Source: Clostridia bacterium (GTDB lineage Bacteria > Bacillota > Clostridia > UMGS1883 > UMGS1540). Taken from it: 64,000 nucleotides of DNA. Both the position numbers and the translations under genes were made by a program. The notes beneath the pieces are model-generated. The model did no database searches and had not been told where the DNA came from. It worked only from the letters and a program-made list of their open reading frames with translations. The stretch lies in assembly GCA_045590195.1 (NCBI GenBank), contig JAZNQN010000044.1, positions 19,186 through 83,185 on the forward strand. Reading direction: 5' to 3'. This document shows positions 1-51,160 of this stretch, one piece after another; position 1 is the first letter of the stretch, and every line of letters begins with the position of its first letter.

Positions 1-495
1 GATGAAGAACAAAACAAGCTCTACATCAGAACAAACATATACAGAGATAACGGAGAATTAAAAGAAGGTAAACCTAAAACGGACGAGGGCGAAAGATGCA
101 TCATACTGCCAAAGGCAACTGCGGATATGTTAAAACAGCGAAGGCGGATATCAAAATGGATATTCCCGAACCTGACAACTCCTGGATTACCCATAGCACC
201 GGAGGCAGCCTACAGAAAAGCAAAACTGATTCTAAAAAGTCTGAATCTGCCGAACATATCCTTCCATGACCTACGACACACCTTCGCAACACATGCCATA
301 GCAAGCGGTGTAGATGCAAAAACACTATCAACGATACTTGGACATACAAACCCAAGCTTCACCCTCGACACATACACACATGTAACAACAGATATGCAAC
401 AAAAAGCATCAAATATAATAGAAATCTTTATGGAAGATATACTCGGAAAGGAGATGAAACCATGGCAAGACGAAAAAGCGGACAAGGAACAGTAA
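1..495 (+). CDS. Tyrosine recombinase/integrase, C-terminal portion (gene starts left of the window)
   Basis: Frame 1 is open from nt 1 to the TAA at 493-495. Catalytic-domain motifs HDLRHTFATHAIASGVDAKTLSTILGHTNPSFTLDTYTHV match the HxxR box and C-terminal Tyr region of the phage-integrase family. Confidence 0.85.
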   Translation, partial: DEEQNKLYIRTNIYRDNGELKEGKPKTDEGERCIILPKATADMLKQRRRISKWIFPNLTTPGLPIAPEAAYRKAKLILKSLNLPNISFHDLRHTFATHAIASGVDAKTLSTILGHTNPSFTLDTYTHVTTDMQQKASNIIEIFMEDILGKEMKPWQDEKADKEQ

Positions 496-1889
496 GACTC
501 AGAAAAGATGGTCGATGGGAAGGCAGAATTGTAATCGGTTACGATGAAAATGGTCTTCCTAAGACAAAAAATGTAACAGCCAAGACAAAAACGGAATGTA
601 TTGAGAAGCTGGAAAAGCTCAAAGATGAAACAGGTTTTATCCGCAGAGAAAAAGTGCATAGCAGAATGACCTTCGGTGAATGGATGGACTTCTGGTATCA
701 GAATTACTGCAAAATGCGAATAAAGGAATCAACTCAAGAGGGCTATGAAACAAGAATATATAATCATATAATCCCCAAGATAGGAAAAATTCCCCTAAAT
801 GAATTGACTCAAAATGACCTGCAGAAATTCTACAACAGCCTTAAACAAGACGGCAGACTGAGATATCGGGATACGCTCGGCGAAGGACTGTCCGACAGGT
901 TCGTGCGAAGCTGCCATGCAAACTGCAGAACTGCACTTCAAAAGGCAACGGATGACAGACTTATAAAAAAGAATCCTGCAATAGGCTGCAAGATACCACC
1001 TAAAAAGTCAAGAGAGATGCAGGTGCTGACGCCGGATGAAATTAAAAGGTTTCTTATACAAGCAAAATATGACGGATTCTTCGAAATCTTCTTAGTAGCC
1101 TTATCTACAGGCTTACGGCGAGGAGAAGATATGGCACTAAAATGGGAAGACTTAAACCTCGATACAGGAGAACTAAAGGTGCGAAGACAAGTCAAACGGA
1201 CAAAAGGCAGATTGGTCATAACAGAGCCAAAGACAGAAGAATCGGTAAGAACGATAATACTACCCAAAAGCCTTGTAAACATCCTGAAGGAATATAAGGA
1301 AACAATAGACTCAGAGTGGATGTTCCCATCACCAAAAGTTGAAGGGATGCCAAGAGATCCCTCAGCAGTATATGGAATGATGCAGGTAATATTAGAAAGA
1401 GCAGAATGTAAAAAGCTTCGATTCCACGATCTCCGCCACACCTTCGCAACCACATCGGTAGCAAACGGAATGGACATCAAAACCTTATCCACCATCCTCG
1501 GACATGTATCAAGCAAAACAACACTTGATATATACCTGCACAGCACCGAGGAAATGAAGAAAGAAGCGGCTGAAAAGATTAACGCCCGATTCAACAAGGA
1601 TACAAACGGTAGCGAAGAAACAATCACAGAAGAACAAGAGAAGCCTCCGCAAGCCAAATTTGAGCCTAAAAAGGGCAAGATGAGAAAGCCCGGCACAGGA
1701 TGCATCAGTAAGATAAACGACCACCTATACGAAGGAAGATACTCGCCAAAGGATGACTACGGCAAACGAATGGCAAGAAACATATATGCACCGACAAGAG
1801 AAGAATGTGAAGAAAAGCTCGGCATACTGATAAAGGAAATGAAAGCCGAAATCGCAGAACAAAAAGCAAAGCTCAAAAATGCAAAATAA
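462..1889 (+). CDS. Tyrosine recombinase/integrase, 475 aa, with arm-type DNA-binding motif at both termini
   Basis: RBS AAGGAG lies 7 nt upstream of the ATG, and the gene overlaps the upstream integrase by 34 nt. Catalytic motifs are LSTGLRRGE and HDLRHTFATTSVANG...LGHVSSKTTLDIYLHS. The N-terminal motif GTVRLRKDGRWEGRI...TKTECIEKLEKLK is repeated near the C-terminus as GCISKINDHLYEGRY...TREECEEKLGILIK. Confidence 0.85.
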   Translation: MARRKSGQGTVRLRKDGRWEGRIVIGYDENGLPKTKNVTAKTKTECIEKLEKLKDETGFIRREKVHSRMTFGEWMDFWYQNYCKMRIKESTQEGYETRIYNHIIPKIGKIPLNELTQNDLQKFYNSLKQDGRLRYRDTLGEGLSDRFVRSCHANCRTALQKATDDRLIKKNPAIGCKIPPKKSREMQVLTPDEIKRFLIQAKYDGFFEIFLVALSTGLRRGEDMALKWEDLNLDTGELKVRRQVKRTKGRLVITEPKTEESVRTIILPKSLVNILKEYKETIDSEWMFPSPKVEGMPRDPSAVYGMMQVILERAECKKLRFHDLRHTFATTSVANGMDIKTLSTILGHVSSKTTLDIYLHSTEEMKKEAAEKINARFNKDTNGSEETITEEQEKPPQAKFEPKKGKMRKPGTGCISKINDHLYEGRYSPKDDYGKRMARNIYAPTREECEEKLGILIKEMKAEIAEQKAKLKNAK

Positions 1890-2078: not shown

Positions 2079-2155
<77 letters not shown>

Positions 2156-2248: not shown

Positions 2249-2317
2249 ACCGTAAAGTGGCATTGTTAAAAGGTTTGCGGGAGTTCGGCTGATTACTAAT
2301 GAATTGAATAGTACCGT

Positions 2318-2357
2318 GTCCCGAACGATGCGCGCTACCAAACTGCGCTACACCCCG
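2318..2357 (-). pseudogene. Orphan 5' half of a second tRNA-Pro allele (acceptor 5' strand through anticodon loop)
   Basis: 38 of 40 nt are identical to 2116-2155 of the intact tRNA. The differences are A/T at the anticodon stem and T/C at the acceptor stem. Homology ends at the anticodon loop and no 3' half follows. Confidence 0.8.
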
Positions 2358-2371: not shown

Positions 2372-2400
2372 ATTATAGCACAGAGAATACATAAAGTCAA
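2372..2400 (-). promoter_or_regulatory. Near-consensus sigma-A promoter reading into the orphan tRNA half
   Basis: On the minus strand, TTGACT (2400-2395), a 17-nt spacer and TATAAT (2377-2372). The -10 ends about 14 nt upstream of the orphan tRNA 5' end at 2357. Confidence 0.65.
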
Positions 2401-2410: not shown

Positions 2411-2437
2411 AAAGGTGCAACAATTTGTTGCACCTTT
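2411..2437 (-). terminator. Hairpin 7 nt downstream of the serpin stop (weak U-tract)
   Basis: AAAGGTGCAAC (2411-2421) / GTTGCACCTTT (2427-2437). Only 3 U follow on either strand. Confidence 0.45.
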
Positions 2438-2443: not shown

Positions 2444-4204
2444 TTATTCCGCAATCATATATTCGCCAATAAACAATATTTCTTCGTTTGTATTATCACG
2501 AATTACAAAAGTAAATGGTTTATCAAATTTTACTTCGATTGGCTCTGTTGGCGCAGAGGCAGCACCTGCCATCATTATTGCAGTTACAGCTGCAGCTTCA
2601 GTTCCTTTTTCGTCAACATTTATATACGTTTTATGAAGTATTTTATCTATGTACATATTAAACTCGTCTTTTTTATCAAACATCTTTTCAAATTCAGCCT
2701 CAAAGGCATCAAAGGCCTTAATTATACCGGCATTTTTCAAAATATCGTTAAGCTCTATTGATGTTTCGATTTTGAATTTCGGCACATAAAGATGAATTCT
2801 TTGACCTTTCATTCTGCCAAGACCAATAATATTTTCCAGTTCAGCTACCCTATTCTCATAATCTGTCATCATTATATACATACTTATATTTACATTATCA
2901 CGATGAAAATCGGCCACAGAGCCATCATCATTTAAAGTGTGAGTAGTACTCTCATAAGGTAACTCTATTACAGTTGTTTTATCATCAGCAAAATACATAA
3001 AATTAGCTGTGTTTTGCATAAATTCAGCTTTTGAAACTGTTCCGTCGAAATTATAAAAATTATCTTTAGAGGTTAATTCTTCTTCAAATTCATTATTCCA
3101 GTTTCCGCTGAAATATACCGCATTTATAAGTGCGGCCCAAAAATCAGCGCTATTTATAATTTCAGGAATTTTTTCGTTTGTTTTATCCGAAACCCAGTTA
3201 TTTATTGTTTTAACAGCATTTTTTCTGTCAACCTCTTTTGCCTCAGCACCATAATAGGAATACACTGTGTCTTTATATGTTCTTGAAAAATTTTTGGTGC
3301 TTTCATCCTTATTAAGCCAAATAGAATTTGCAATACTAAGCTTAACAGCTTTTGCCTCTAAATAGCTTTCAATTAAAGACTTTGCAGTTTCATTATACTG
3401 AGCTATATCATAAATTTCGGCAACTTCGCTTATTTCTTTATAAGTTTCGCCCTCTGCCCCGTTTGCTGCAAGCGCAAGAGCCATTTTAATTGAAAGCGGC
3501 GAAAACATATAGTTACTATTTTTCGGCATACCGCTATTTAAATCATCTGCAAAATAACTTTTGGCAGGTGTACCGCCAAATAGTATTCCTTCAAAATCAT
3601 TTTGTGTGTAAAGTCCCTTATCAATTAGCTTTTTATAAAGCATTTGTCCGTCAGCACATTTTGATGTAAGAGCGCTGCGGCAAAGCCTTGTTACATCACT
3701 TCTTAAAAGACTGTAATTTCCTTCAACAACGCTTTTGGTAAAATTATTGTTTATTACATCTGCAGCTTTTCCAATTTTAAGAGCGTTTTCAATTGTAACT
3801 TCAGAATATCCCATAACAGTCAATAAAATTTTTAAAAACTCTTTTCCCGTAACAGTTCTTTGCGGCTGAAAAGTAGTAGCTGATGTACCGTCAATATAGC
3901 CTGCTATGTAAAATTTTTCTATAACATCGGCCGCCCAGTGGCCTTTTACATCTTCAAACGGGAAATCGGCCATAGCTATGTCACTAAATGCTACTCCTGT
4001 TGTGCGCCAGATGAAAGTTAGCGCTTCTGCACGAGTTACCTCTCTCTCCAGTTCATAACCAATATCTGTACCCTTTAAAATGCCAAGTATTGCCATACCT
4101 TCTGCACCGGTATCAATAGGTATTTCTTCCCTTGGTAAGATTGCTGCCGAAGCAGATACGAAAAGCATTAAGGCAGCTAACAATAAAGCAAATATTTTTT
4201 TCAT
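2444..4204 (-). CDS. Secreted, SLH-domain (cell-wall anchored) serpin-family protease inhibitor, 586 aa
   Basis: Signal peptide MKKIFALLLAALMLFVSASA. SLH-type repeat FEDVKGHWAADVIEKFYIAGYIDGTSATTFQPQRTVTGKEF. Serpin core motifs MFSPLSIKMALALAANGAEGETY and NAVYFSGNWNNEF. Reactive-centre hinge EKGTEAAAVTAIMMAGAASAP...VKFDKPFTFVIRD. RBS AAGGAGG upstream of the ATG. Confidence 0.85.
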   Translation of the reverse strand: MKKIFALLLAALMLFVSASAAILPREEIPIDTGAEGMAILGILKGTDIGYELEREVTRAEALTFIWRTTGVAFSDIAMADFPFEDVKGHWAADVIEKFYIAGYIDGTSATTFQPQRTVTGKEFLKILLTVMGYSEVTIENALKIGKAADVINNNFTKSVVEGNYSLLRSDVTRLCRSALTSKCADGQMLYKKLIDKGLYTQNDFEGILFGGTPAKSYFADDLNSGMPKNSNYMFSPLSIKMALALAANGAEGETYKEISEVAEIYDIAQYNETAKSLIESYLEAKAVKLSIANSIWLNKDESTKNFSRTYKDTVYSYYGAEAKEVDRKNAVKTINNWVSDKTNEKIPEIINSADFWAALINAVYFSGNWNNEFEEELTSKDNFYNFDGTVSKAEFMQNTANFMYFADDKTTVIELPYESTTHTLNDDGSVADFHRDNVNISMYIMMTDYENRVAELENIIGLGRMKGQRIHLYVPKFKIETSIELNDILKNAGIIKAFDAFEAEFEKMFDKKDEFNMYIDKILHKTYINVDEKGTEAAAVTAIMMAGAASAPTEPIEVKFDKPFTFVIRDNTNEEILFIGEYMIAE

Positions 4205-4257
4205 ATTATACCTCCTTTTTCCTTTTTAGACGAGCAGTTTTAAAAAAAGTTCCAAAA

Positions 4258-4293
4258 AACCCAAAAAATCCGCCAAGGCGGATTTTTTGGGTT
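4258..4293. terminator. Long hairpin between htrA and the serpin gene
   Basis: AACCCAAAAAATCCGCC / GGCGGATTTTTTGGGTT forms a near-perfect ~16-bp stem with T-runs on both sides. Confidence 0.75.
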
Positions 4294-4318
4294 TAGGGAT
4301 ATATCTATGAAAACGTGG

Positions 4319-5677
4319 TTATTGCGCTTTTGTAGTATCTTCGCCAAGAACAACCGAAACATCCATTGCAGAGCCGTTTCTGTTGATTTTAAGAGTTATA
4401 GTGTCGCCTGCTTTGTGTGAATCGCGTATTTCATTAAGGCCTTCGGAGCTTGTAACTTCCTGTCCGTTACAGGAAATAATTATATCACCCTTCATAATTC
4501 CGGCTTTTGCAGCACCTGTTCCCTCTGTAACTTCTACAACAAAAAGTCCTTTTGCAGGGAGATTGTAATAATAAGCTTCCTGCTCGGAAACATATCTTAC
4601 TGAAAGCCCAATAAGCGGACGGCCTTTTACATAGCCAAAGTTAATAAGGTCTTCAATAATAGGTTTTGCATCACTTATTGGAATTGCAAACCCAAGGCCT
4701 TCAACCCCGCTTGAAGAAACCTTAACCGAGTTAATGCCGATAACTTCGCCAAATTCGTTAACAAGCGCTCCACCGCTGTTACCAGGATTAATTGCAGCAT
4801 CTGTCTGAATCATTTTATAGGTTCTTCTGTCAACAGTAACAGTTCTGTTAACGGCACTTATAATACCCTGAGTAAGCGAGCCTGCAAACTCAAGCCCTAG
4901 TGGATTACCGATTGCAACAACTTTTTCGCCTGCTTCAAGATTTGTGCTTTCACCAAAAACAGCCGCAGGAAGATTTGTTTCCTCTATTTTAATTACCGCA
5001 AGGTCGGTTTTTTCGTCGCCACCAATAAGTTTTGCCTCATATTCTTTTCCTGTATTTAAAACAACTTTAACCGAGGTTGCACCTGCGATTACATGGTAGT
5101 TTGTAACAATGTATCCGTTCTCTGTAAAAATAATACCTGAGCCACTACCTGATGAAACATCTGAGAAAAAGCCCTGATACTGAACTGTGCTGACAATTCC
5201 AACTACTGATGGGCCAACAAGTTTTCCAATATCAACTGTTGACAACACTTTTCTGTCGTCTTTATTATAAGTTACGGGCTGTGCATTTGTTTTGTTTTCT
5301 TCGATTTGTGAAGTTCCAAATGAAAACTGCTGCATATTTCCGTTTTGCATAAGGCCGCTGATTACAGGCGATACAAGCGAAAAAATGAGAGCTCCCATTA
5401 TTGCGCTGACCGTTGCAACAAGCCAGGTTTTGGGCTTTTTATGCTTTTTCTCTCTTTTTATATTCTGCTTATAAGAAGAAACAACCACAGGATAAACATC
5501 ACCTTTTTTAAATCTGTAAGAAGTATCTTCATCTATTGTAAAGAAAGATTGTTGATTTTCATTTTCCAATGTTTCTGCATCAAAAGCCATATTTGCTTCT
5601 TCTTCAGAAAAATTGTTGTTTTCAAAATTTTCTTGCATAGTTTCTCTCCTTTGTTTTATTTGATTTAATTTTAACAC
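4319..5677 (-). CDS. htrA: HtrA/DegP-family serine protease with N-terminal TM helix and C-terminal PDZ domain
   Basis: Catalytic triad contexts NYHVI, DLAVIK and GNSGGALVN. PDZ-like segment GLFVVEVTEGTGAAKAGIMKGDIII. Confidence 0.9.
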   Translation of the reverse strand: MLKLNQIKQRRETMQENFENNNFSEEEANMAFDAETLENENQQSFFTIDEDTSYRFKKGDVYPVVVSSYKQNIKREKKHKKPKTWLVATVSAIMGALIFSLVSPVISGLMQNGNMQQFSFGTSQIEENKTNAQPVTYNKDDRKVLSTVDIGKLVGPSVVGIVSTVQYQGFFSDVSSGSGSGIIFTENGYIVTNYHVIAGATSVKVVLNTGKEYEAKLIGGDEKTDLAVIKIEETNLPAAVFGESTNLEAGEKVVAIGNPLGLEFAGSLTQGIISAVNRTVTVDRRTYKMIQTDAAINPGNSGGALVNEFGEVIGINSVKVSSSGVEGLGFAIPISDAKPIIEDLINFGYVKGRPLIGLSVRYVSEQEAYYYNLPAKGLFVVEVTEGTGAAKAGIMKGDIIISCNGQEVTSSEGLNEIRDSHKAGDTITLKINRNGSAMDVSVVLGEDTTKAQ

Positions 5678-5723
5678 TTAATTATTATCAATCTATGAAC
5701 AAACTTAAAAAAAAATTTAAAAC

Positions 5724-7139
5724 CTAGGCTTTTTTTAGTTTAAACTTAAATCTTGCCCACCTGTCTTTTTCGCTTTCAACTAAAATTTTTTCGCCGTGAT
5801 TTGCCAAAATGCTGTGAACCATAAAAAGCCCTAATCCCATACCATTTTTATCATAGCTACGAGATTTATCTGACTTATAAAATCTTTCAAACACATGGCT
5901 TATTTCCTCAGGGGTAATACCAATGCCAGAATTTTCAACAGAAATATCAACCTTTCCTCCCGAAGCTCGCAATACTTTAATTTTTATATATCCGCCTTCA
6001 AAATTAAATTTAATTGCGTTATCGATAAGGTTAGTCATAACCTGTGAAATTGCATCTTTATCGGCGAAAACAAATTCGTTTTCATTTTCAAATTCAATAT
6101 CAACATCAATTTTTTTCTCGTTAATCTGATTTTCAAATCTTAATATAGTTATTCTTACAAGCTCGTTAATATCAAAGCTTCTTGGCGAAAGCTTCATAGT
6201 GCCCGATTCAATTCTGGAAAGGTCTAAAAGTTTTCCAACAAGCCTTGCAAGACGTTTTGTTTCATCAAGAACAATTTTCAGGTATTTATCCTTATCTTCT
6301 TCTGAAATAGTTCCATCAAGAATCCCCTCAACAAAACCTGAAATTGTAGTCATAGGCGTTCTAAGTTCGTGAGAAACGTTTGAAATAAAATCAGAACGCA
6401 TATCTTCAAGGTTTTTTAAAGAATCGGTCATTTTATTAAAGTTTTCAGCAAGTTCCGCAATATCAGTATTCCCTTCTGCCCGAACTTTCAAATCAAAATT
6501 CCCTTTTGCTATTTCTTTGGAAATTTTATTCATTTCCATTATCGGCCTTGATATTCTTTTAGAGTAAAAATAAAGCATAACAACAACGCCGAAAAAAACG
6601 ATAGTTATTGTTGTAAGAAAGGTTTTAACAAAATAATACTTTTGCTGATTAACAACCGGAGATGGAACAGACAAAAAAGTTGCCCCTACAATAGAGTTAT
6701 TCCCTTTAAGAGGAATTCCAACCGTTAAATATGTCCCCTTAAAAAGGCCGTTCATATTACCAATCTGCAAAAAATCGTTACCATCTAAAACCTTTTTGGC
6801 AATTTTATCTTCAGGAACTCTGTCTCCAAAATGCTTCGATGCATTGTTGCTGGTTAACAGATTTCCATACCTGTCCATAATATACACAACGCCGTTTACT
6901 TTGCTTGCAGAATCGTTTAAGCTTTTTTTATAAAGCTTTTCAACAGTAGGCGTTCTGTTTGACAGATAAAATATCGTAAGGTCATTTATTCTTTCTGCTT
7001 CATCTCTTAAAATGTCGCCTTTTTCATTTATAAAAAAGTCGCCTAAAAAGCCAAATAAAACAGTTCCCGTAACAATTAAAAGAACAAGCGTTATAATTAC
7101 ACTTACAAATATAATTCTCGAGTAAATTGTTTTAAGCAT
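5724..7139 (-). CDS. Sensor histidine kinase (2 TM, HAMP, HisKA, HATPase)
   Basis: H-box SNVSHELRTPMT, N-box LIDNAIKF and G-box GMGLGLFMV. The ATG directly abuts the response-regulator stop. Confidence 0.9.
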   Translation of the reverse strand: MLKTIYSRIIFVSVIITLVLLIVTGTVLFGFLGDFFINEKGDILRDEAERINDLTIFYLSNRTPTVEKLYKKSLNDSASKVNGVVYIMDRYGNLLTSNNASKHFGDRVPEDKIAKKVLDGNDFLQIGNMNGLFKGTYLTVGIPLKGNNSIVGATFLSVPSPVVNQQKYYFVKTFLTTITIVFFGVVVMLYFYSKRISRPIMEMNKISKEIAKGNFDLKVRAEGNTDIAELAENFNKMTDSLKNLEDMRSDFISNVSHELRTPMTTISGFVEGILDGTISEEDKDKYLKIVLDETKRLARLVGKLLDLSRIESGTMKLSPRSFDINELVRITILRFENQINEKKIDVDIEFENENEFVFADKDAISQVMTNLIDNAIKFNFEGGYIKIKVLRASGGKVDISVENSGIGITPEEISHVFERFYKSDKSRSYDKNGMGLGLFMVHSILANHGEKILVESEKDRWARFKFKLKKA

Positions 7140-7838
7140 TTACTTCACCTCAAACTTATATCCTACTCCCCACACAGTTTTAAGCGACCAGCCTTCATCA
7201 ACGCCTTCAAGCTTTTCACGAAGCCTTTTTACATGAACATCAACCGTTCTTGAATCGCCAAAATAATCAAAATCCCAAACTTCACCCAGCAGCTGTTCTC
7301 TAGTAAAAACGCGGTTTGGATGAGATGCAAGAAAATATAAAAGCTCGAGTTCCTTTGGCGGAACATCAATTTCTTCTTCCTGAACGCGAAGCTCGTAATT
7401 GTTAAGGCTTATGTAAAGCCCGGGAAGGGAAACCTCGCCATTATCGGCTTTGTCAGCTTTATTTTCAAATCTTCTTAAAACTGCCTTTATTCTTGCAGAA
7501 AGCTCTTTTGCCTCAAAAGGCTTAACAATGTAGTCATCCGCTCCCATTTCGAGCCCTAAAACTTTGTCAAATGTTTCGCCTTTGGCAGTAAGCATAATTA
7601 TCGGAACATTACTCTCTGCCCTGATTTCTCTGCAAACTCTTATTCCATCGATTTTAGGAAGCATAATATCAAGCACTATAAGGTCAGGCGATGCTGATTT
7701 AAACTTTTCTATTGCCTCTTCGCCATCGTATGCAAACAAGGTTTCATAACCTTCTTTTTTAAGATACAAACCTATAAGGTCGCAAATATTTTTATCATCG
7801 TCAACAACCAAAATTTTCGTTTCGTTCATTAAATTCAC
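7140..7838 (-). CDS. OmpR/PhoB-family response regulator
   Basis: Receiver motifs VVDDDKNICDLI and DLIVLDIMLPKIDG. Winged-helix motifs RTVDVHVKRLREKL and GVGYKFE. Confidence 0.9.
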   Translation of the reverse strand: MNLMNETKILVVDDDKNICDLIGLYLKKEGYETLFAYDGEEAIEKFKSASPDLIVLDIMLPKIDGIRVCREIRAESNVPIIMLTAKGETFDKVLGLEMGADDYIVKPFEAKELSARIKAVLRRFENKADKADNGEVSLPGLYISLNNYELRVQEEEIDVPPKELELLYFLASHPNRVFTREQLLGEVWDFDYFGDSRTVDVHVKRLREKLEGVDEGWSLKTVWGVGYKFEVK

Positions 7839-8017: not shown

Positions 8018-9112
8018 ATGAATACTATAACTTCTGAACCTAAAATAGAAAAAAAGCGTATGCTTTTTATTGATATTCTTAAAACTATCGCAATTTTCGG
8101 CGTTTTAATAATTCATTTCACACCGAGAGCTTATACTGAATATTCTCCTTATTCATTTCAGTATATATTTACTGTTTTTATAAACTGCCTGGTACGCTTT
8201 AGTGTACCTGTTTTTGTAATGTGCAGCGGTACACTTTTTCTTGATGATAACAAATCAGTTTCAGTAAGGAGTATTTATAAAAAATACATACCACGTATAG
8301 TTATAGCCCTTTTCATTTTTGCGGTAATTTACGAAGGGTTTTCAATTTGTTGTTCTTTTCTTAATACGGGCGTTTGGGATACTGCTTTTTTTGTCACTGC
8401 CTTGAAAAACCTTTTAACCTTTAACACCCATTTTCACTTGTATTATCTTTACATAATTATAATTCTTTATGCTCTTACGCCAACAATTAAATTGTTTTTA
8501 AAATCTGCCAGGAAAAGAGATATTGAATATATAATTTTGTTTATTTTTATAACAAGCATTTTTCTGCCGTTTCTCAGAAACTTTTATCCTCTCGACCGCT
8601 ATTTCGGAGGTATGACTTTTCAGTACTCTTTAAATCTTGTATACAGCCTGATTGTTTACTACATACTTGGATACTATTTAAACAAATTCCCTCCAGAAGG
8701 CAAGAAATTTATTCTTACAATTGCACTTGGTATACTTAGTGTTTTTATAACATTTTTCGGCACAACAAACCGCCTTATTGAAAGCGGCTCTCTTTCCGAA
8801 ATTTATCTGCAGGGAACTTCGCCAACTGTATTTTTTATGTCGACAGCGCTGTTCTCTTCAGCAAAAAAACTAAGCAAAAATATCAGTGAACATTCTTTTG
8901 CATCAAGAATTTTTAAATTTATTTCAAAAGTAAGCTTTACAATTTATCTTGTACACGAGTGTTTTAATATTTTGTTTGAAAAACTTGGATTTACTATTTT
9001 TTGTATGAATCCTCTTATTTCTCTCCCTCTTTTGCTCATTTCAAACACAATACTTTCATCACTTGCATATCTGATTTTAAGAAAAATTCCAGGCATTAAA
9101 AGTATTTTGTAA
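8018..9112 (+). CDS. Acyltransferase-3 family integral membrane protein (O-acyltransferase type)
   Basis: About 10 hydrophobic helices. N-terminal FIDILKTIAIFGVLIIHF is typical of the family. This is a family-level call from memory. Confidence 0.55.
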   Translation: MNTITSEPKIEKKRMLFIDILKTIAIFGVLIIHFTPRAYTEYSPYSFQYIFTVFINCLVRFSVPVFVMCSGTLFLDDNKSVSVRSIYKKYIPRIVIALFIFAVIYEGFSICCSFLNTGVWDTAFFVTALKNLLTFNTHFHLYYLYIIIILYALTPTIKLFLKSARKRDIEYIILFIFITSIFLPFLRNFYPLDRYFGGMTFQYSLNLVYSLIVYYILGYYLNKFPPEGKKFILTIALGILSVFITFFGTTNRLIESGSLSEIYLQGTSPTVFFMSTALFSSAKKLSKNISEHSFASRIFKFISKVSFTIYLVHECFNILFEKLGFTIFCMNPLISLPLLLISNTILSSLAYLILRKIPGIKSIL

Positions 9113-10200: not shown

Positions 10201-10230
10201 AAAGCTGAGCAAAATTTGCTCAGCTTTTTT
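10201..10230. terminator. Bidirectional terminator between the PP2C-like gene and yunB
   Basis: AAAGCTGAGC / GCTCAGCTTT stem flanked by an A-run and a T-run. Confidence 0.8.
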
Positions 10231-10918
10231 AATCGCCATCCGGCAAAAGGTTTAAAACTGCGTCCTGAGGGTCGCTTTGCCCTGTAACATTAGTATATGT
10301 TCCCGGTACTCCTCCAACAATTATTGTTTCCGCAATCGGTATCTGGGTTTTAACAGAAGTACTTTTTGAGCTGATTGGAAGAAGCACTGAGATTGTCATA
10401 CTTATTTCAAGATAAATTTCGTGTTTCGTTTGGTTAATACCGGCAGAAGTAAACTCATTTTTAACATCAATTCCGGCGTAACCAACAGGTACCATTTTTA
10501 TTTTAATTTTAGGCCCAAGGCCTGAAAACATACTTTGATTTAAAAGATTTCCAAGCGGTATTTTCGTAGTCATAAGGTCAATATCGCTTACCTTTTTTTC
10601 AACTTCCATAGCAATAGTTGACTTGAGTCTGTTTATCTCAACAACATTCGAAGTAACCGCAGCAACATTGTTTTCTCCATTTTTCTGAAAAGATACAAGG
10701 TCGCTGTATTTAATATCCGAATTTGCCATTATATCGTTTACAACATTTGCAATAACTCTTACTGCAACGCTTTTTGCCCGAGAAGATGCAACTTCGTTTA
10801 TTATTGGCCTCATTCGTACTTCGAAAATTGTAAATGAAATTATTGTACAAATCAGAAAAATGCAGAAAAATATGTAAAGCCATTTTTTCCTACTGCTTCG
10901 CCGATATTTCTTAGCCAC
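10229..10918 (-). CDS. yunB: Sporulation protein YunB-like
   Basis: N-terminal TM helix plus IPLGNLL...GLGPKIKIKMVPVG...FTSAGINQTKHEIYLEI...AETIIVGGVP, the pattern I recall for the YunB family. Confidence 0.6.
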   Translation of the reverse strand: MAKKYRRSSRKKWLYIFFCIFLICTIISFTIFEVRMRPIINEVASSRAKSVAVRVIANVVNDIMANSDIKYSDLVSFQKNGENNVAAVTSNVVEINRLKSTIAMEVEKKVSDIDLMTTKIPLGNLLNQSMFSGLGPKIKIKMVPVGYAGIDVKNEFTSAGINQTKHEIYLEISMTISVLLPISSKSTSVKTQIPIAETIIVGGVPGTYTNVTGQSDPQDAVLNLLPDGD

Positions 10919-22130: not shown

Positions 22131-22133
22131 TAA

Positions 22134-22326
22134 GTTCCCTGCTGTGTGTCGGGAGACGGAGCAATAATTTTTTCCGATGCTATTTTAAACGGGAGATTAA
22201 ATAAATACAATTGGTGTGTAAGGCCCCCCGCTTTGCGGTTTGAGGGTAACCCGTAGATTGTAATGATAATCACCCACCTGACTTTTCAGGTTAAAATTTA
22301 TCCGTTTATCGCCACTTGCGGGGCTA
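22134..22326 (+). ncRNA. Candidate structured ncRNA, 6S RNA-like (about 190 nt)
   Basis: This is a gene-free interval between convergent genes. The 5' segment 22137-22159 pairs with the 3' segment 22302-22324 (17 of 23 pairs, including 6 G-U pairs that only work on the plus strand). Internal hairpins are CCGC-TTT-GCGG and ACCTGA-CTTT-TCAGGT. A terminator follows at 22337-22363. Confidence 0.4.
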
Positions 22327-22336
22327 AATAAAAAAT

Positions 22337-39452: not shown

Positions 39453-40437
39453 TTTCGCCATCTCCTTTCTCCACAGCCTCGGAAGGCTCTAAATCTTCTG
39501 TAGTGTAGTTTACAAGCGGAGCACGAAGGCCTACTTCTTCCCCTGCCTGATACTCACCATAGAAAGAGTTTATATCTTTTATAAACTTACGGTTTAAAAG
39601 ATGAAGTGGAATGTTTTGCGGACAAACTCTTGAACATTCGCCGCAATCTGTACATCTTCCGGCAACGTGAAAAGCTCTTATAATGTGAAACATTTTTTCT
39701 TCAAAGCTATCTGCTGCGGCTTTGTTTTCCACGCCTGATTTAGGATTGCCAAATACGCACTGTTCACAAGTACAAGCGGGACAGACATCGCGGCAGGCAT
39801 TACATCTTATACATCTTGAAAGCTCGCCCTGCCAGAAAGCAAATCTTTCATCGGCAGACATTTTTTCAAGGCGCTTAACTTCATCAAAGCGGTTAGAATC
39901 AATAATTTCGCCTTCGTCGCCAATAAGTTCATCGTATGCAACATGCTTGCGGCTTTTGCAAGAGATGCATCTTTCAGCTAAAACATCAGCTTTATTAAAT
40001 ACTTTTTCATCGCCATAAATTGATTTTACCAAAATTTCATCGCCGTTTTCCAAAATTTCAGAAACAGCAGAAATTTCAGCTTTAATTTTTGAAACATCAG
40101 TCATTCCATCGCAGGGAATTCCAACGGCATAAACTTTTTCGCGGTCTATGCGGTGTTCAGTTAAAAGCTGATTAAAACTGTATGTGTCACATGGTTTCAA
40201 GAAAACCAGCACTTTTCCATCTTTCTGGCATTCTTTTACTAGATATTTTGAAAAGTTTGCACCACAAAAAGCATTGTAAACAAAATCTTTTTTAAGAGAT
40301 TCGGCATCTTTAAACACACCGGGGGTTACATCGTATGAAAACTCGCCCTCTTTCCAGCCTAAAACTCTGTCAACCTTTCCGCTTTCAAGGAGGTTTAATG
40401 CTTTATCTATAAGAATATCACGATTTATTGTTTGCAT
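39445..40437 (-). CDS. FeS protein, FrhB-like N-terminus plus 2x[4Fe-4S] (FlxC-like)
   Basis: CIRCNACRDVCPACTC and CTDCGECSRVCP. It overlaps mvhD by 13 nt. Confidence 0.65.
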   Translation of the reverse strand: MQTINRDILIDKALNLLESGKVDRVLGWKEGEFSYDVTPGVFKDAESLKKDFVYNAFCGANFSKYLVKECQKDGKVLVFLKPCDTYSFNQLLTEHRIDREKVYAVGIPCDGMTDVSKIKAEISAVSEILENGDEILVKSIYGDEKVFNKADVLAERCISCKSRKHVAYDELIGDEGEIIDSNRFDEVKRLEKMSADERFAFWQGELSRCIRCNACRDVCPACTCEQCVFGNPKSGVENKAAADSFEEKMFHIIRAFHVAGRCTDCGECSRVCPQNIPLHLLNRKFIKDINSFYGEYQAGEEVGLRAPLVNYTTEDLEPSEAVEKGDGENA

Positions 40438-40859
40438 CTTAAATCCTCCAATCTTTTGTTTTCGCCAAGAGCAGCAACTGCTTCGGCAAATTCATTCATT
40501 GTTTGCGCAAATTTTGCGCCTTCAGCCGCAGAAACCCATTCAACACGGGTTCTTTCTTTTTCAATACCGAGAAAATCGAGCATTGAGAAAAGAAGCGACA
40601 TTCTTCTTCTTGTATAGTAGTTACCAGAAGTATAATGGCAGTCGCCAGGGTGGCAACCACAGATTATAACCCCGTCTGCTCCACGCTGAAATGCTCTTAA
40701 AATAAACATTGGGTTTACCCTACAAGAGCATGGAACACGAATTATTTTAACTTCGGCAGGGTAACTGAGTCGGTTATTACCTGCAAGGTCGGCACCGGCA
40801 TAAGAACACCAGTTACAGCAAAATGCCACTATTAAAGGTTTTTTCTCTTCTATTTGCAT
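40425..40859 (-). CDS. mvhD: MvhD/FlxD-like methyl-viologen-reducing-hydrogenase delta-subunit family protein
   Basis: IVAFCCNWCSYAGADLAG, RVPCSCRV and ICGCHPGDCHY. Confidence 0.85.
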   Translation of the reverse strand: MQIEEKKPLIVAFCCNWCSYAGADLAGNNRLSYPAEVKIIRVPCSCRVNPMFILRAFQRGADGVIICGCHPGDCHYTSGNYYTRRRMSLLFSMLDFLGIEKERTRVEWVSAAEGAKFAQTMNEFAEAVAALGENKRLEDLRCKQ

Positions 40860-42844
40860 ATTGCATCCACCTCCGCTAAAATTTGTGCATTTTTAAAGCC
40901 TTTTAAATCCATTGCACCTGATGGACAGGCAACTGTACAAGCACCGCAGCCCTGACAAACAGCTTCATTAACCTGAGCTACGCGGCGCATTTTTGTTGTT
41001 CTGTTTGGCATACGGAACTCTTTAACTACATAAGTTATTGCACCATATGGGCAAACTCTTTCGCAACTACTGCATCCGTTACACATCATTTCGTCTGATG
41101 CGGCAATACAAGGATTACCAAGAAGTTTATCTTTGCATAAAAGGCCGATAACCTTTGAAGCCGCCGCTCCCGCCTGGGAAACAGTTTCAGGAATATCTTT
41201 CGGGCCTTGACAAGCACCTGACAAAAATACGCCTGCGGTTGGGCTTTCAACCGGACGAAGCTTTGGATGAGCCTCGGTAAAGAAATCGTTTGTATCCATA
41301 CTTGCAGTGAGCATTGTTGCAAGAGGACGAGCTGATTTATCAGGCTCGATTGCGGCTGCTAAAACAACCAAATCTGCATCAATGTTAATCTGTTTATTTG
41401 AAATTAAATCGCTTGCACGCACTTTAAGCTTATCGCCTTCAGGCATAATTTTGCCAACCATACCTTTAATGTAGTGAACACCAAATTCCTCGGTTGCTCT
41501 TCTGTAAAATTCGTCAAAGTTTTTACCGGGAGTTCTGACATCGATGTAGAATACTGTTACGTCAGTATCCGGATATTTATCACGAGTGAGCATTGCGTGT
41601 TTCGCTGTGTACATACAACAAATTTTAGAACAGTATTCCTTACCTTTTTCATTGCATGCATCGCATCTTGAACCTACGCACTGAACGAAAACGATTTTTT
41701 CAGGATGTTTTCCGTCTGAAGGGCGTAAGAGTTTACCTGCTGTTGGGCCTGCCGCATTGGTAAGACGCTCAAATTCGAGAGAAGTTATAACATCTTTCGA
41801 CTGGTTATAAGCATACTCATCAAATTTTTCCATACTGATAGGATTAAAGCCTGTTGCAACAACAATTGCACCATATTTTTCTTCTATAATTTCATCCTGT
41901 TGCTTATAATTGATAGCTCCTGCTGCACAAACCTTTTCACAAAGGCCGCACTTGCCATTTTTAAGCATATTACAGTAATCAGCATCAATTGTTGCAACCT
42001 TTGGAACTGCCTGAGCAAAAGGAATATAAACCGCTCTTCTCATATCCATTCCAAGGTTAAATTCATTAGGAACTTTCTTTTGAGGACATTTTTCTGTACA
42101 AAGGCCGCAACCTGTACATTTAGTTTCGTCAACAAATCTTGCTTTTTTCTTAATTTTTACATCAAAATTTCCTACAAAACCGGAAACTGCTTCAACTTCG
42201 CTATAGGAAAAAATTCTTATTTTATCGTTCTGTGCAACATCAACCATTTTTGGAGTTAAAATACAAGCCGCACAGTCAAGTGTTGGGAAGGTTTTATCAA
42301 TCTGCGCCATCTTGCCGCCGATTGTAGGATTTTTTTCAACTATATCTACCGGGAAACCTGCATCGGCAATATCAAGAGCTGTTTGAATACCTGCAATACC
42401 GCCACCGATAACCAAAGCACGCTTTGTAACAGGGCTTTCGCCAGGTGTAAGCGGAGCGTTAAGGTTAACCTTTGCAACAGCCGCTTTGCCCAAAATAATT
42501 GCTTTTTCAGTTCCTGTAGGGATATCTTTATGAACCCATGAGCACTGCTCACGAATGTTTGCAATTTCAACCATATAAGGGTTAATCCCTGCACTTTCAG
42601 CGGTTTTTCTGAAAGTATTCTCGTGCATACGGGGTGAACAGGAACAAATAACTATACCGGTAAGATTATGCTCTTTAATAGCATCTTTAATCATTTCCTG
42701 TCCCGCTTGGGAACACATATACTGATAGTTAGTGGAGAAAACAACACCAGGCTCTTTTTTCAAGGCTTCGCTAACTGCTTCAACATCAACAGTTGCCGCA
42801 ATATTGCTTCCGCACCAACATACGAATACACCAATTCTTTGCAT
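40850..42844 (-). CDS. hdrA: HdrA-like FAD/FeS heterodisulfide-reductase subunit A (full-length, bifurcation-type architecture)
   Basis: N-terminal Cys-rich domain (VCWCGSN, ICSCSPR). FAD fold ALVIGGGIAGIQTALD. Inserted ferredoxin CTGCGLCTEKCP/CGLCEKVC. VQCVGSR. C-terminal CNGCSSCERVCP and CQGCGACTVACP. Confidence 0.85.
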   Translation of the reverse strand: MQRIGVFVCWCGSNIAATVDVEAVSEALKKEPGVVFSTNYQYMCSQAGQEMIKDAIKEHNLTGIVICSCSPRMHENTFRKTAESAGINPYMVEIANIREQCSWVHKDIPTGTEKAIILGKAAVAKVNLNAPLTPGESPVTKRALVIGGGIAGIQTALDIADAGFPVDIVEKNPTIGGKMAQIDKTFPTLDCAACILTPKMVDVAQNDKIRIFSYSEVEAVSGFVGNFDVKIKKKARFVDETKCTGCGLCTEKCPQKKVPNEFNLGMDMRRAVYIPFAQAVPKVATIDADYCNMLKNGKCGLCEKVCAAGAINYKQQDEIIEEKYGAIVVATGFNPISMEKFDEYAYNQSKDVITSLEFERLTNAAGPTAGKLLRPSDGKHPEKIVFVQCVGSRCDACNEKGKEYCSKICCMYTAKHAMLTRDKYPDTDVTVFYIDVRTPGKNFDEFYRRATEEFGVHYIKGMVGKIMPEGDKLKVRASDLISNKQINIDADLVVLAAAIEPDKSARPLATMLTASMDTNDFFTEAHPKLRPVESPTAGVFLSGACQGPKDIPETVSQAGAAASKVIGLLCKDKLLGNPCIAASDEMMCNGCSSCERVCPYGAITYVVKEFRMPNRTTKMRRVAQVNEAVCQGCGACTVACPSGAMDLKGFKNAQILAEVDAICK

Positions 42845-42858
42845 TTGCTTTCTCCTTT

Positions 42859-43245
42859 CTATTTACTATATTTTCTCATTGCACTTACAATTGCCTGTTG
42901 TGGCAACTGTTCATCTAAAAGTGAAGGTATTGCATCAGCTTTAAGATGATTTTCGCCCTGCTGACGTACTTTTAAAAGCCTTACTGCTTCAATAAGTTTT
43001 GCCGGCTCTACGCCTCTGGGACAACGCTCAACACAGGCAAAACAAGAAAGACATTTGAAAATTGAAGGCGACTCCATAAGTTTATCAACATCACCGTTTT
43101 CAACCATATAAACAAACTGATGAGGATGATATTCCATTTCATCATAAGAAGGACATGTACCTGTGCATTTGCCGCATTTCATACATTTTTTAGGATTAAC
43201 ACCGCTGATGCGCAAAATTTCGTTTGAAAGCTCTGTTTTATTCAT
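42859..43245 (-). CDS. hdrC: HdrC-like 2x[4Fe-4S] subunit
   Basis: CMKCGKCTGTCP and CLSCFACVERCP. ATG 43245 lies 9 nt after AAGGAGG and gives an 8-nt ATGAATAA overlap with hdrB. Confidence 0.8.
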   Translation of the reverse strand: MNKTELSNEILRISGVNPKKCMKCGKCTGTCPSYDEMEYHPHQFVYMVENGDVDKLMESPSIFKCLSCFACVERCPRGVEPAKLIEAVRLLKVRQQGENHLKADAIPSLLDEQLPQQAIVSAMRKYSK

Positions 43246-44032
43246 TTGCACAGCCCTCCTTTACGCCAAGCGCCTGTGCTAAAAGCTCGGTAAAATATTT
43301 AATTTCTATACCGTCGGCGTGTTTTTCAAGATTATATTTGCAAAGTGGGCAAGCTGTTACTATCATATCTGCACCCATTTTTTTGGCACTTTCCAAAATA
43401 GCAATACTCTTCTTCTTTGCACTTTCACTATCTTCAAGAGCTATATATCCGCCGCAGCATTCGTTTCTGTATGGCGAAACTATTGCTTCCGCACCCATAG
43501 CTTTTACAAGATTTTCAAGAATCTGCGGATTTTCGCTGTCGTCCATCTGCATAACTTTACCAGGACGAAGCAAAAGACAACCATAATATGGAGCAATTTT
43601 TTTACCCTCAAGAGGATTTGTAACTTTTTTGGCAATTTCTTCAAAGCCAATTTCATCTCTCAAAAGCTCAAGATAATGAATAACCTCTGCATCTCCCTCA
43701 TAAGGCGTATCAAGATTCATATAGTTATTTGCTTTAAAAGCAAAATCGCTATCGTTATTAAACTGATAATTTGTTTGTTTTATTACATTATGGCAGGCAG
43801 CACAAACTGTTACAAGCTTCTGACCTTTTTCTTTTGCCTCTACAAGGGCACGAATTGAGGAAAGCTTTGTTGCAATTTCATCCTTCGAAGTTGTAAAAAC
43901 TCCGCCGCAGCACTGCCAGTTATTTATTTCTTCCAGATTAACCCCTAATGCCGCCGCACTTTCTCTTGCGTATTTATCAAGTTCTTTTGCTTTGGTTTTA
44001 AGAGTACAACCGGGATAATATGAAAAATTCAT
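43238..44032 (-). CDS. hdrB: HdrB-like subunit with two CCG domains
   Basis: YYPGC...NWQCCGG...CAACHN and YYGC...ECCGGY...CPLCKYN. The start is at ATG 44032 (MNFSYYPGC) after AGGGAG. Confidence 0.85.
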   Translation of the reverse strand: MNFSYYPGCTLKTKAKELDKYARESAAALGVNLEEINNWQCCGGVFTTSKDEIATKLSSIRALVEAKEKGQKLVTVCAACHNVIKQTNYQFNNDSDFAFKANNYMNLDTPYEGDAEVIHYLELLRDEIGFEEIAKKVTNPLEGKKIAPYYGCLLLRPGKVMQMDDSENPQILENLVKAMGAEAIVSPYRNECCGGYIALEDSESAKKKSIAILESAKKMGADMIVTACPLCKYNLEKHADGIEIKYFTELLAQALGVKEGCANE

Positions 44033-44054
44033 ACCTAAACTCCCTTCTGCAAAA

Positions 44055-45431
44055 TTATACCATCTGTTCAGGATGGAACACTTCGTCAAATTTTTCTTCG
44101 GTTAAAAAGCCAAGCTCGATACAAGCCTCTTTAAGAGAAATATTGTCTTTATAAGCTTTTTTAGCTGTTTTAGCCGCATTTTCATAACCGATATAAGGGT
44201 TAAGCGCAGTAACAAGCATAAGTGAATTATGAAGATTATGATGCATTTTTTCGCGGTTTGCCTTAATGCCTACTGCACAGTTTTTGTTAAATGAAACAAT
44301 GGCTTCTGCCATAAGACGTGCCGACTGCAAAAAGTTATATATGCATACAGGCATAAATACATTAAGTTCAAAGTTACCCTGTGAAGCTGCCATAGAAACA
44401 GCAACATCATTACCCATTACCTGAACGGCAACCATTGTTACCGCTTCACACTGAGTTGGGTTAACTTTACCCGGCATAATTGATGAGCCCGGTTCATTTT
44501 CAGGGATGAAAATTTCTCCAAGGCCATCACGAGGACCGCTTGCAAGCCAACGGATATCGTTTGCTATTTTCATCATATCGCAGGCAAGGGCTTTAATTGC
44601 ACCATGTGCAAAAACAAGCTCGTCTTTTGAAGTTAATGCGTGAAATTTATTCTCAGCAGTTACAAATGGTTTTCCTGTTATTTTCGAAACCTCTGCCGCA
44701 ACGCCTTCTGAAAAACCTTTTGGAGCATTAAGTCCTGTTCCAACTGCAGTTCCGCCAAGTGCAAGTTCACAAAGCGGCTTTACGCTTTGCTTCAAAAGCT
44801 CTACATCTTTCTGGAGGCTTGATCTCCAGCCGCTGATTTCCTGGCTGAATTTTATTGGAGTTGCATCCTGAAGATGTGTTCTTCCGCTTTTTACTATATC
44901 TTCGTTTTCTTTTTCAAGGCGTGAAAAAGTATCGATAAGAGTTTGGACAGCAGGAATAAGTTTATCTTCTATCATCAAAACTGCGGAAATATGCATAGCT
45001 GTAGGGAAAGTATCGTTTGACGACTGGCTCATATTAACATCATCATTAGGATGAAGAATACTTTTGCCCGCAATCTGATTTCCACGGTTTGCAATTACTT
45101 CGTTTGCATTCATATTCGACTGAGTGCCGGAGCCCGTTTGCCATACAACAAGAGGAAAATGGCTATTAAGCTTGCCGCTTATAACCTCATCGCAAGCACT
45201 GGAAATTGCCGAAAGTTTTTCTTCAGTCATTTTTTCGGGTTTCAAAGCGTGATTTGCGATTGCTGCAGCTTTTTTCAAAATGCCGAATGCATGTGTAATT
45301 TCACGTGGCATTGTTTCAATATTTACACCGATTTCAAAATTTTCGTGACTTCTCTGGGTTTGAGCCGCCCACAACCTGTCGGCAGGAACTTTAACCTCTC
45401 CCATCGAGTCGTGTTCAATACGATAATCCAT
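44055..45431 (-). CDS. fumC: Class II fumarate hydratase
   Basis: [15 protein letters not shown] signature. N-terminal [21 protein letters not shown] is FumC-like rather than AspA-like. Confidence 0.85.
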
Positions 45432-45449
45432 AACTACTCCTCTTTTCTT

Positions 45450-46406: not shown

Positions 46407-46447
46407 GGTATTCTTCCTTTCGTGTATGAAATATCGTTACAACCTCA

Positions 46448-46487
46448 ATTGTAGCACACATTTAAATTAAAATCAATAGAAATTGAT
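46448..46487 (-). promoter_or_regulatory. Candidate operon promoter with overlapping 6-4-6 palindrome
   Basis: On the minus strand, TTGATT (46476-46471), a 17-nt spacer and TACAAT (46453-46448). The palindrome ATCAAT-AGAA-ATTGAT at 46472-46487 covers the -35. Confidence 0.45.
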
Positions 46488-46504
46488 AATTTTTTAACAA
46501 TCTT

Positions 46505-46540
46505 TTTTAAAAAGCTAACTCTATATTTAAATATAGAGTT
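46505..46540 (-). terminator. Terminator after the 46547-47980 hydrogenase gene
   Basis: AACTCTATATTT/AAATATAGAGTT palindrome, followed on the minus strand by AGCUUUUU. Confidence 0.7.
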
Positions 46541-46546
46541 TTAGCA

Positions 46547-47980: not shown

Positions 47981-47990
47981 AATATTCACC

Positions 47991-50838: not shown

Positions 50839-51095
50839 TCCCCTATATTTAATACTTTAAGTATATGTTCCTTAAAAAAGTCATCGAACTTATGTATTGT
50901 AAGTCCTACAAAAACTTCATCGTTTATCTGAACGGTTACGCCTTCGCGATTGCATTTTCCAATGCAAAAGCTTCCGGCAACAGAAACTTTGTCGCCAATA
51001 TTATAATCACTTACTGCTTTTTCAAAAGCATTTGCTATTTCATATGAACCTTTAATATGACAGGAACTGCCAATACAAACTAATACTTTAAGCAA
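50835..51095 (-). CDS. Thioredoxin-like [2Fe-2S] ferredoxin (86 aa, HfsA-like position)
   Basis: C7-x4-C12...C44-x3-C48 pattern (VCIGSSCH...SFCIGKC). TTG start and a 4-nt GTGA overlap with hydS. Confidence 0.65.
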   Translation of the reverse strand: MLKVLVCIGSSCHIKGSYEIANAFEKAVSDYNIGDKVSVAGSFCIGKCNREGVTVQINDEVFVGLTIHKFDDFFKEHILKVLNIGE

Positions 51096-51152: not shown

Positions 51153-51160
51153 ATATGTTA

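Follow-up and report, generated by a model that had tools for sequence, protein, structure and literature searches.

In a 64,000-nucleotide stretch of DNA from a Clostridia bacterium (contig JAZNQN010000044.1, positions 19,186 to 83,185; hereafter the window), the minus-strand gene at 2444..4204 (stop codon included) encodes a protein that joins an S-layer homology (SLH) region to a serpin domain. Our favoured reading, held with moderate confidence, is that this SLH-serpin is an exported, wall-held suicide inhibitor of serine proteases with a preference for small P1 residues, produced from its own extracytoplasmic function (ECF) sigma-type promoter and induced by envelope stress. The gene is supported by the open reading frame (ORF) list, by Pfam matches to Serpin and SLH and by at least 120 full-length homologs. 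It starts with an ATG located seven nucleotides past a ribosome-binding site read from the sequence (AAGGAGG, 4211..4217, minus strand), and its product is 586 aa in length, with hundreds of homologs recovered by protein search. Pfam calls and inspection of the sequence agree with the layout proposed in an initial annotation of the locus, namely a signal peptide followed by an SLH region and a full serpin domain.

The serpin domain occupies aa 222-583 (2456..3541, minus strand) and matches PF00079 over model positions 10-368 of 370, with an E-value of 1.2e-83 and 281.8 bits against a cut-off of 27, bearing out its description as a full domain. A search of PDB sequences returned 191 serpins at E < 1e-10, with conserpin, tengpin and miropin matching at E 1e-45 to 1e-41. 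The full-length AlphaFold2 (AF2) model, with a predicted local distance difference test (pLDDT) score of 84.5, has the serpin order of secondary structure throughout its serpin core. A low-confidence linker at aa 210-214 separates the SLH and serpin domains, and pLDDT falls below 50 at aa 538-551, where the reactive-centre loop is modelled as exposed, disordered and not inserted.

The hinge and reactive-centre loop, assigned from the sequence, the family alignment and the AF2 model, span aa 532-557 (P17 Glu532 to P9'; 2534..2611, minus strand) and read E532-K-G-T-E-A-A-A-V-T-A-I-M-M-A-G-A548/A549-S-A-P-T-E-P-I-E. Counting from the hinge places P1 at A548 and the predicted scissile bond at Ala548-Ala549 (2558-2563, minus strand). 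Anchoring on the prime-side S-x-P-x-E moves P1 to A549, an ambiguity that arises because the window clade has one extra residue; P1 is Ala either way, and the loop string and residue count of the initial annotation were correct. Loop statistics were compiled from the 109 of 121 sequences (120 listed relatives and the window protein) with a hinge fitting E-x-G-T-E-A. In all 109, P17 Glu, P15 Gly, P14 Thr, P12 Ala and P8 Thr are invariant, and P11 Ala (107/109), P10 Ala (106/109) and P9 Val (100/109) are nearly so, including the AAAV at P12-P9 that had been read as an inhibitory-type feature. The corresponding residues of the window protein are E532 (P17), G534 (P15), T535 (P14) and A537-A538-A539-V540 (P12-P9). 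They agree with the inhibitory hinge consensus of P17 Glu, P15 Gly, P14 Thr/Ser and short side chains at P12-P9, and the serpin domain looks to be of the inhibitory type.

The predicted P1 residue across the 109 sequences is Thr in 54, Ser in 33, Ala in 17 and Gly in 3, and P1' is Ser in 66, Ala in 29 and Gly in 8. As judged from this alignment, a small P1 is a trait of the whole SLH-serpin family, whose prime side carries a Pro-rich P-x-E-P stretch. The segment from E532 to P563 comprises 31 residues in the window protein, whereas the equivalent span of alpha-1-antitrypsin has 27; from the hinge to a conserved PF motif there are 23-28 residues in the family (mostly 24-25, and 25 in the window protein) compared with 21 in alpha-1-antitrypsin. 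The prime side is therefore longer, by 3-5 residues across the 109 relatives, in line with the original estimate of about four. The serpin domain also carries a family-specific beta-hairpin insertion of about 20 residues at aa 418-437 (2894..2953, minus strand), modelled by AF2 as strands 420-424 and 430-435 and aligned to a gap in conserpin. It sits between the 'ELPY' and 'ISMYIMM' strands, is found in the family but not in relative P0118, and could, going by the model, be an exosite.

Pfam recognises a single SLH repeat, at aa 82-123 (3836..3961, minus strand; PF00395, E = 5.3e-8, 33.2 bits against a cut-off of 20.8). A profile of the SLH region (aa 23-212), built from 24 relatives and searched against PDB sequences, matched the SLH domain of Bacillus anthracis Sap with E 2.5e-22 and P. 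alvei SpaA with E 7e-5. The AF2 model of the region (pLDDT 93; predicted template modelling score, pTM, 0.90) was compared with PDB structures by Foldseek, and the best 15 matches were exclusively three-repeat SLH domains (SpaA and Sap), at probability 1.00 over about 160-170 aligned columns and with TM-scores of 0.55-0.68; the next match had an E-value of 0.85. The profile, model and Foldseek results place a complete three-repeat SLH domain at approximately aa 28-182 (3659..4123, minus strand) and rule out the view, suggested by Pfam, that only one repeat is real. The initial annotation, which listed one complete and two partial repeats, was thus right about the identity of the domain and understated the count.

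The three modelled repeats comprise helices 25-27/34-39/58-69, 84-86/92-100/120-130 and 141-147/154-161/168-179. The long helix of each begins at a TRAE-type motif: T57-R58-A59-E60 in repeat 1, T119-G120-K121-E122 in repeat 2 and L167-R168-S169-D170 in repeat 3. In the family alignment R58, G120 and R168 are invariant among 35 relatives, as is T57-R58-A59, with E60 nearly so, and the repeat 1 motif aligns with the TRAE of Sap. In the structures of SpaA and Sap, the TRAE Arg is the residue that binds wall-polymer pyruvate, and the SpaA motifs TRAE/TVEE/TRAQ contain Arg in two of three repeats. The window protein resembles SpaA in this respect, with R58 and R168 in repeats 1 and 3 and G120 in place of Arg in repeat 2. 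The region hence combines a Pfam match above threshold, a three-pronged triad fold and TRAE-type motifs with the ligand-binding Arg. The predicted wall anchoring through the SLH triad is well supported by this homology and by the Arg-bearing motifs shared with SpaA and Sap. A family hidden Markov model search found no further SLH proteins in the window.

Export is likewise supported. The N-terminus consists of MKK, an 11-aa hydrophobic core (Kyte-Doolittle mean 3.05) and ASA/A at aa 18-21, and AF2 models a helix at aa 2-15. A positively charged n-region, a hydrophobic h-region and small residues at -3/-1 are the sequence features of a type I signal peptide, assigned to aa 1-20 (4145..4204, minus strand), and an equivalent N-terminus is present in 117/120 SLH-serpin relatives. 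The signal peptide proposed in the initial annotation is upheld by these features, and secretion of the product by the Sec pathway is supported at the level of sequence. A lipobox-like Cys is found in the signal peptide of 14/120 relatives (P0092, P0094, P0120 and 11 others), which may be both lipid-anchored and SLH-bound.

Database searches for the SLH-serpin architecture recovered at least 120 full-length clusters at 90% identity, ranging from 570 to 646 aa and 41-98% identical to the window protein; both Pfam domains were detected in nearly all of those listed. Where named, they are labelled 'hypothetical' or 'S-layer homology domain-containing protein', and their named sources are mostly Clostridia/Clostridiales and Ruminococcaceae/Oscillospiraceae metagenome-assembled genomes (MAGs). 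Judging from record titles, the relatives come mainly from animal gut and rumen MAGs. Among 1.8 billion 50%-identity representatives, approximately 40 match the whole profile as one stretch, and several dozen more (550-620 aa) match through the serpin domain together with extra N-terminal stretches. The earlier remark that bacterial serpins are sporadic accordingly needs qualifying. We found no paper describing an SLH-serpin fusion, and those examined that contain both terms treat them separately; a gut serpinome review and a serpin phylogeny paper mention no SLH domain or anchor. SLH-serpins thus constitute a large, unstudied family of what appear to be surface-tethered bacterial serpins with a new anchor module.

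Analysis of the region upstream of the gene revealed an ECF-sigma-type promoter motif, GGAAC-N16-CGTCTAA, at 4226..4253 (minus strand), with the sequence GGAACTTTTTTTAAAACTGCTCGTCTAA. The ATG follows 49 nt later, and the window contains no other match. The -35 element GGAAC(TT), the -10 element CGTC, a spacing of 16-17 nt and a suitable distance to the start codon are all present. The -35 element of the Escherichia coli sigma-E promoter is GGAACTT, and CGTC is common in the -10 region of promoters recognised by ECF sigma factors, one from Clostridia among them (PMC3397946). Alignment with five relatives showed that T-GGAAC-N16-CGTCT(A/T)A and the ribosome-binding site are the only conserved blocks in an otherwise diverged intergenic region, a phylogenetic footprint in which the elements are kept while spacer and flanks diverge. 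No riboswitch or leader was detected near the gene by Rfam.

Genomic context was examined at only about 18 family loci, a small sample on which the frequencies given here rest; among the matches listed by genome and metagenome scans for further members, most were serpins of other kinds. The same motif occurs 48-68 nt upstream of the start codon at unlinked loci encoding distant relatives, L081/82 (48% identity), L092 (43%), L002 (39%) and L003 (41%), and one-base variants are present at L093, L094 and L098. It also precedes serpins that lack the SLH triad of the family. In a Firmicutes MAG (L072, 7735..11041, plus strand), it stands ahead of each of two tandem lipoprotein-type serpins of 415 and 424 aa, which are without SLH and have the lipoboxes FTGC/LTGC, and in Agathobaculum (L013) it precedes a 560-aa serpin with a diverged N-terminal domain. 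A strict search for GGAAC-N16/17-CGTCTAA on both strands of 94 loci (3.0 Mb) gave 14 matches; 13 are on the serpin strand, and 10-11 of these precede a serpin start codon by no more than about 70 nt. The sole opposite-strand match, at about position 5226 of L092 (minus strand), lies approximately 160 nt upstream of a LytR_cpsA_psr (LCP) ligase gene (3601..5067, minus strand), and its position beside an SLH-serpin locus hints at a shared envelope regulon. We regard the ECF-type motif upstream of serpins as a previously unreported regulatory signal.

A gene for an ECF-type sigma factor (Sigma70_r2 and r4_2; TIGR02937, E 7e-22) was found directly upstream of the SLH-serpin at one locus (L095, 1..570, plus strand). 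It ends about 90 nt before the serpin gene, whose product is 41% identical to the window protein; the two genes share a strand and are separated by a hairpin, and the SLH-serpin occupies the place usual for an anti-sigma gene.

The proposed mechanism starts with transcription from the ECF-sigma-type promoter, outside the htrA operon described below; given a promoter of this type, envelope stress would probably induce the inhibitor. Once exported by Sec and freed of its signal peptide, the protein would bind the secondary cell-wall polymer through its N-terminal SLH triad, and the short flexible linker would hold the serpin domain out at the cell surface. The exposed loop would present a small-residue scissile bond, Ala-Ala here and Thr/Ser/Ala followed by Ser/Ala in the family, and a protease cutting it would be trapped as an acyl-enzyme on insertion of the loop into beta-sheet A. 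Of this scheme, the gene and its domains, the sequence of hinge and loop, the size of the family, the terminator and the conservation of the motif are directly shown, and we infer wall binding, inhibition, sigma dependence and the class of target. Wall and surface proteins would in this way be shielded from external serine proteases that accept a small P1, such as elastase-like enzymes of host or microbial origin. A protective role against such proteases is the most likely one by analogy with the serpins of Bifidobacterium longum and Clostridium thermocellum. An elastase-type target is plausible from the loop sequence, and a small P1 would suit HtrA-type and alpha-lytic-type proteases equally well.

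Several observations weigh against this interpretation. P1 Thr/Ser is unusual for elastase inhibitors, and the environment is inferred solely from the record titles of relatives. With regard to regulation, L095, which has the adjacent sigma gene, is itself without the GGAAC/CGTCTAA motif. A scan of ten window ORFs, nine with 130-229 aa and the tenth with 300 aa, detected no ECF sigma domain and yielded no candidate ECF sigma or anti-sigma gene; the larger neighbours are housekeeping genes. At L001, L083 and L088/L089 another block, TGCAAC-N18-GTATTAT, lies 50-73 nt upstream of the SLH-serpin start and may act as promoter for another alternative sigma factor, while L008 and L091 show neither block. 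Finally, the true scissile bond may differ from that predicted, as siropins are cut at P3-P2 and P6-P5 (PMC5127057).

A broader and more tentative proposal places the exported serpins of Clostridia, those with an SLH anchor as well as those of lipoprotein type, among the effectors of an envelope-stress regulon under ECF-sigma control. Proteolytic attack on the surface would activate the ECF sigma, for example through anti-sigma cleavage, and the sigma factor would then drive production of the wall-tethered suicide inhibitor through GGAAC-N16-CGTCTAA. The result would be a surface defence circuit that both senses and neutralises proteases, hitherto undescribed and common among gut Oscillospirales.

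The gene immediately upstream of the SLH-serpin encodes a membrane-anchored HtrA/DegP-family protease (4319..5677, minus strand; Trypsin_2 and PDZ domains, NCBIfam HtrA models), with a single transmembrane helix at aa 84-102, and is a candidate partner. It forms a tight unit (4319..7838, minus strand) with genes assigned by Pfam to a HAMP-containing histidine kinase (5724..7139, minus strand) and an OmpR-type response regulator (7140..7838, minus strand), and the unit resembles the CssRS-HtrA/HtrB secretion-stress system of Bacillus subtilis. An Acyl_transf_3 membrane protein gene (8018..9112, plus strand) is divergent from this unit. The initial annotation had emphasised the adjacency of htrA, and we considered whether the serpin serves specifically to regulate the adjacent HtrA, trapping or buffering it at the membrane-wall interface to curb self-damage during secretion stress. 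The two genes lie on the same strand with a gap of 114 nt, and both products are predicted to be extracytoplasmic. The order response regulator-histidine kinase-htrA-serpin is kept at L086 and L087, and htrA-serpin at L084/85 (69-71% identity), while what follows the serpin varies among the L084-L087 loci; in L090, the 98% relative, the 3' end of htrA and the intergenic sequence are shared with the window. HtrA/DegP proteases favour a small aliphatic or hydroxyl P1 (Val/Ala/Thr/Ile), a preference that fits the Thr/Ser/Ala found at P1 in the family. HTRA1 cleaves alpha-1-antitrypsin exactly at P1-P1', with some complex formed (PMC4203740).

Against such a dedicated role, htrA adjacency is restricted, among the loci examined, to a clade of 69-98% identity. 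No htrA was found within the examined flanks (about 4-10 kb where the contig allows) at L081/82, L083, L088/89, L091-L094, L002 and L003, all at most 52% identical. An intrinsic terminator, consisting of a 17-bp hairpin and U-run (4257..4294, minus strand; RNA fold), directly follows the htrA stop codon, and together with the separate promoter lies between htrA and the serpin. The hairpin has a folding energy of -33.3 kcal/mol (z -3.9), matched by 0/200 shuffles. A hairpin occurs at the same place with a different sequence in L084 and L086 and with near-identical sequence in L090, and none is evident in L087; retention in place with a different sequence is the signature of a functional terminator. 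Because of this hairpin between the genes, co-transcription of htrA and the serpin is unlikely as a rule, and the loci examined do not show the conserved linkage expected of an htrA operon. HTRA1 is not inhibited by alpha-1-antitrypsin, the one serpin-HtrA pair checked (PMC4203740), and no bacterial serpin-HtrA pair turned up in literature searches. We therefore consider dedicated regulation of HtrA improbable. An htrA-serpin operon as a general explanation is ruled out by the terminator and by linkage confined to the close clade, and the adjacency may be synteny inherited within one clade, since it is absent from the other contexts examined. The adjacency itself stands, and the general link drawn from it in the initial annotation was an over-reading. 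From the upstream sequences, activation of the SLH-serpin gene appears to come from an envelope-stress promoter and not to be coupled to htrA.

Equally doubtful is the proposal that the targets use another bond of the loop, being subtilisin-like or papain-like cysteine proteases that cut after conserved Met/Ile residues at P4-P6. The residue seen most often is Met at both P4 (65/109) and P5 (49/109), and P6 is most often Ile (66/109). Miropin uses several bonds of its reactive-centre loop, and SERPINB3, with P1 Ser, inhibits cathepsins, both precedents for such a mode of action. Human neutrophil elastase (HNE) and proteinase 3 (PR3) cut siropins at P3-P2 and P6-P5 (PMC5127057); C. thermocellum PinA is described as inhibiting subtilisins (PMC12484212) and papain as inducing the Bifidobacterium breve serpin (PMC8012564). 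The siropin cleavages, however, occurred without detectable SDS-stable complexes (PMC5127057). Moreover, efficient trapping normally needs a cut about 16-17 residues after P17, and cleavage at more N-terminal bonds tends towards substrate behaviour. Conservation of both the small P1/P1' pair and the prime-side P-x-E-P suggests that the canonical site is under selection. A non-inhibitory serpin-fold surface protein, serving in binding or structure or as a decoy that is merely cleaved, would accommodate the hairpin insertion at aa 418-437 and a prime side longer than in classical serpins, but is highly improbable, as the P17-P8 hinge is almost invariant and of the inhibitory consensus, lacks bulky or charged side chains at P14 and P12-P9, and is of a type typically lost in non-inhibitory serpins.

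The remainder of the window provides context for the locus. Directly after the serpin stop codon is a 12-bp hairpin (2411..2437, minus strand) that is kept in L090; it is followed by an A-run and no T-run, and is therefore no canonical terminator in the direction of the serpin. Beyond it lies a strong sigma-70-type promoter, TTGACT-17-TATAAT (2372..2400), for a tRNA-Pro gene. An integrase-bearing element, which runs off the window start, is inserted in the anticodon loop of this tRNA-Pro(CGG) gene 3' of the serpin, leaving a broken tRNA-Pro half at about 2309..2347 (minus strand). The insert contains an integrase gene (462..1889, plus strand), an integrase fragment (127..495, plus strand) and, about 160 bp from the junction, a complete tRNA-Pro(CGG) gene (2079..2155, minus strand), apparently a replacement copy. 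The element starts downstream of both the serpin's hairpin and the tRNA promoter. In the 98%-identical L090 the same serpin is followed by an intact tRNA-Pro and no integrase, which rules out the serpin as cargo of the adjacent element.

Elsewhere in the window, a 6S RNA gene was identified at 22133..22328 (plus strand; Rfam RF00013, 55.8 bits). The presence of a gene for the sporulation protein YunB (10229..10918, minus strand) and, within 40425..62121, of FlpD, 4Fe-4S ferredoxin-domain and two thioredoxin-like 2Fe-2S genes indicates a spore-forming strict anaerobe, in keeping with relatives that are affiliated with Clostridia/Oscillospirales.

Few bacterial serpins have been studied so far (those of B. 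longum, siropins, miropin, tengpin, thermopin and PinA), and interest in them stems from their ability to neutralise host elastase-type proteases of gut inflammation. Tethering through SLH repeats, if true, would add a third mode of surface retention for bacterial serpins to the two already known, by dockerin and by membrane anchor. The conserved ECF-type promoter offers a testable handle on the timing of inhibitor production and suggests that serpins form part of the response to envelope stress. Should the small-P1 loop inhibit neutrophil or pancreatic elastase, abundant commensals would bear surface-bound anti-elastase activity; if the protein acts on HtrA, the two would form the first bacterial serpin-HtrA regulatory pair known to us.

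Comparison with characterised proteins covered two groups, the S-layer proteins and the bacterial serpins. With Sap (PDB 3PYW/6BT4) and SpaA (PDB 6CWC and related entries) it shares the three-repeat fold, profile homology and the TRAE of repeat 1. It differs in that its passenger is a serpin rather than an S-layer lattice domain, that repeats 1 and 3 are too diverged for the Pfam SLH model, and that the TM-scores are moderate at 13-20% identity. The closest natural bacterial serpin structures are those of tengpin from Thermoanaerobacter tengcongensis (PDB 2VH4/2PEE, E 3e-42) and miropin from Tannerella forsythia (PDB 5NCS, E 2e-41), neither of which is SLH-anchored. Miropin is a lipoprotein whose reactive-centre loop is promiscuous, and tengpin has a short N-terminal extension that governs its latency transition.

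The dockerin serpins of C. (Acetivibrio) thermocellum, such as PinA, likewise represent Clostridia serpins joined to a non-catalytic module that targets them to a surface structure, and have been proposed to shield surface proteins from proteases (Kang et al. 2006; O Cuiv et al. 2013, as cited in PMC12484212). PinA carries a dockerin where the window protein has an N-terminal SLH triad for the wall polymer, and acts on subtilisin-like proteases, whereas a small P1 is predicted here. The window serpin has no Pfam dockerin match at E-values up to 1, and no cellulosomal genes were found near the SLH-serpin loci examined. The Bifidobacterium serpins are also gut-bacterial and cell-retained. According to PMC8012564, the B. 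longum serpin (BL0108) is a membrane-anchored elastase inhibitor (Ivanov et al. 2006), and that of B. breve is protease-induced via a neighbouring two-component system (Alvarez-Martin et al. 2012). The window, too, has a two-component system two genes upstream of its serpin, but the conserved upstream element is an ECF-type promoter that is also present in relatives without such a system. The B. longum protein is anchored by an N-terminal membrane segment rather than SLH, in a different phylum, Actinomycetota. Siropins 1 and 2 of Eubacterium siraeum, which act on the elastase-type proteases HNE and PR3, resemble the SLH-serpin as gut Clostridia serpins with an inhibitory-type, small-residue hinge (PMC5127057). 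Unlike it, they are single-domain proteins of 44-48 kDa without SLH, one predicted to be intracellular and one secreted, and their mapped cuts follow Val at non-canonical positions (PMC5127057).

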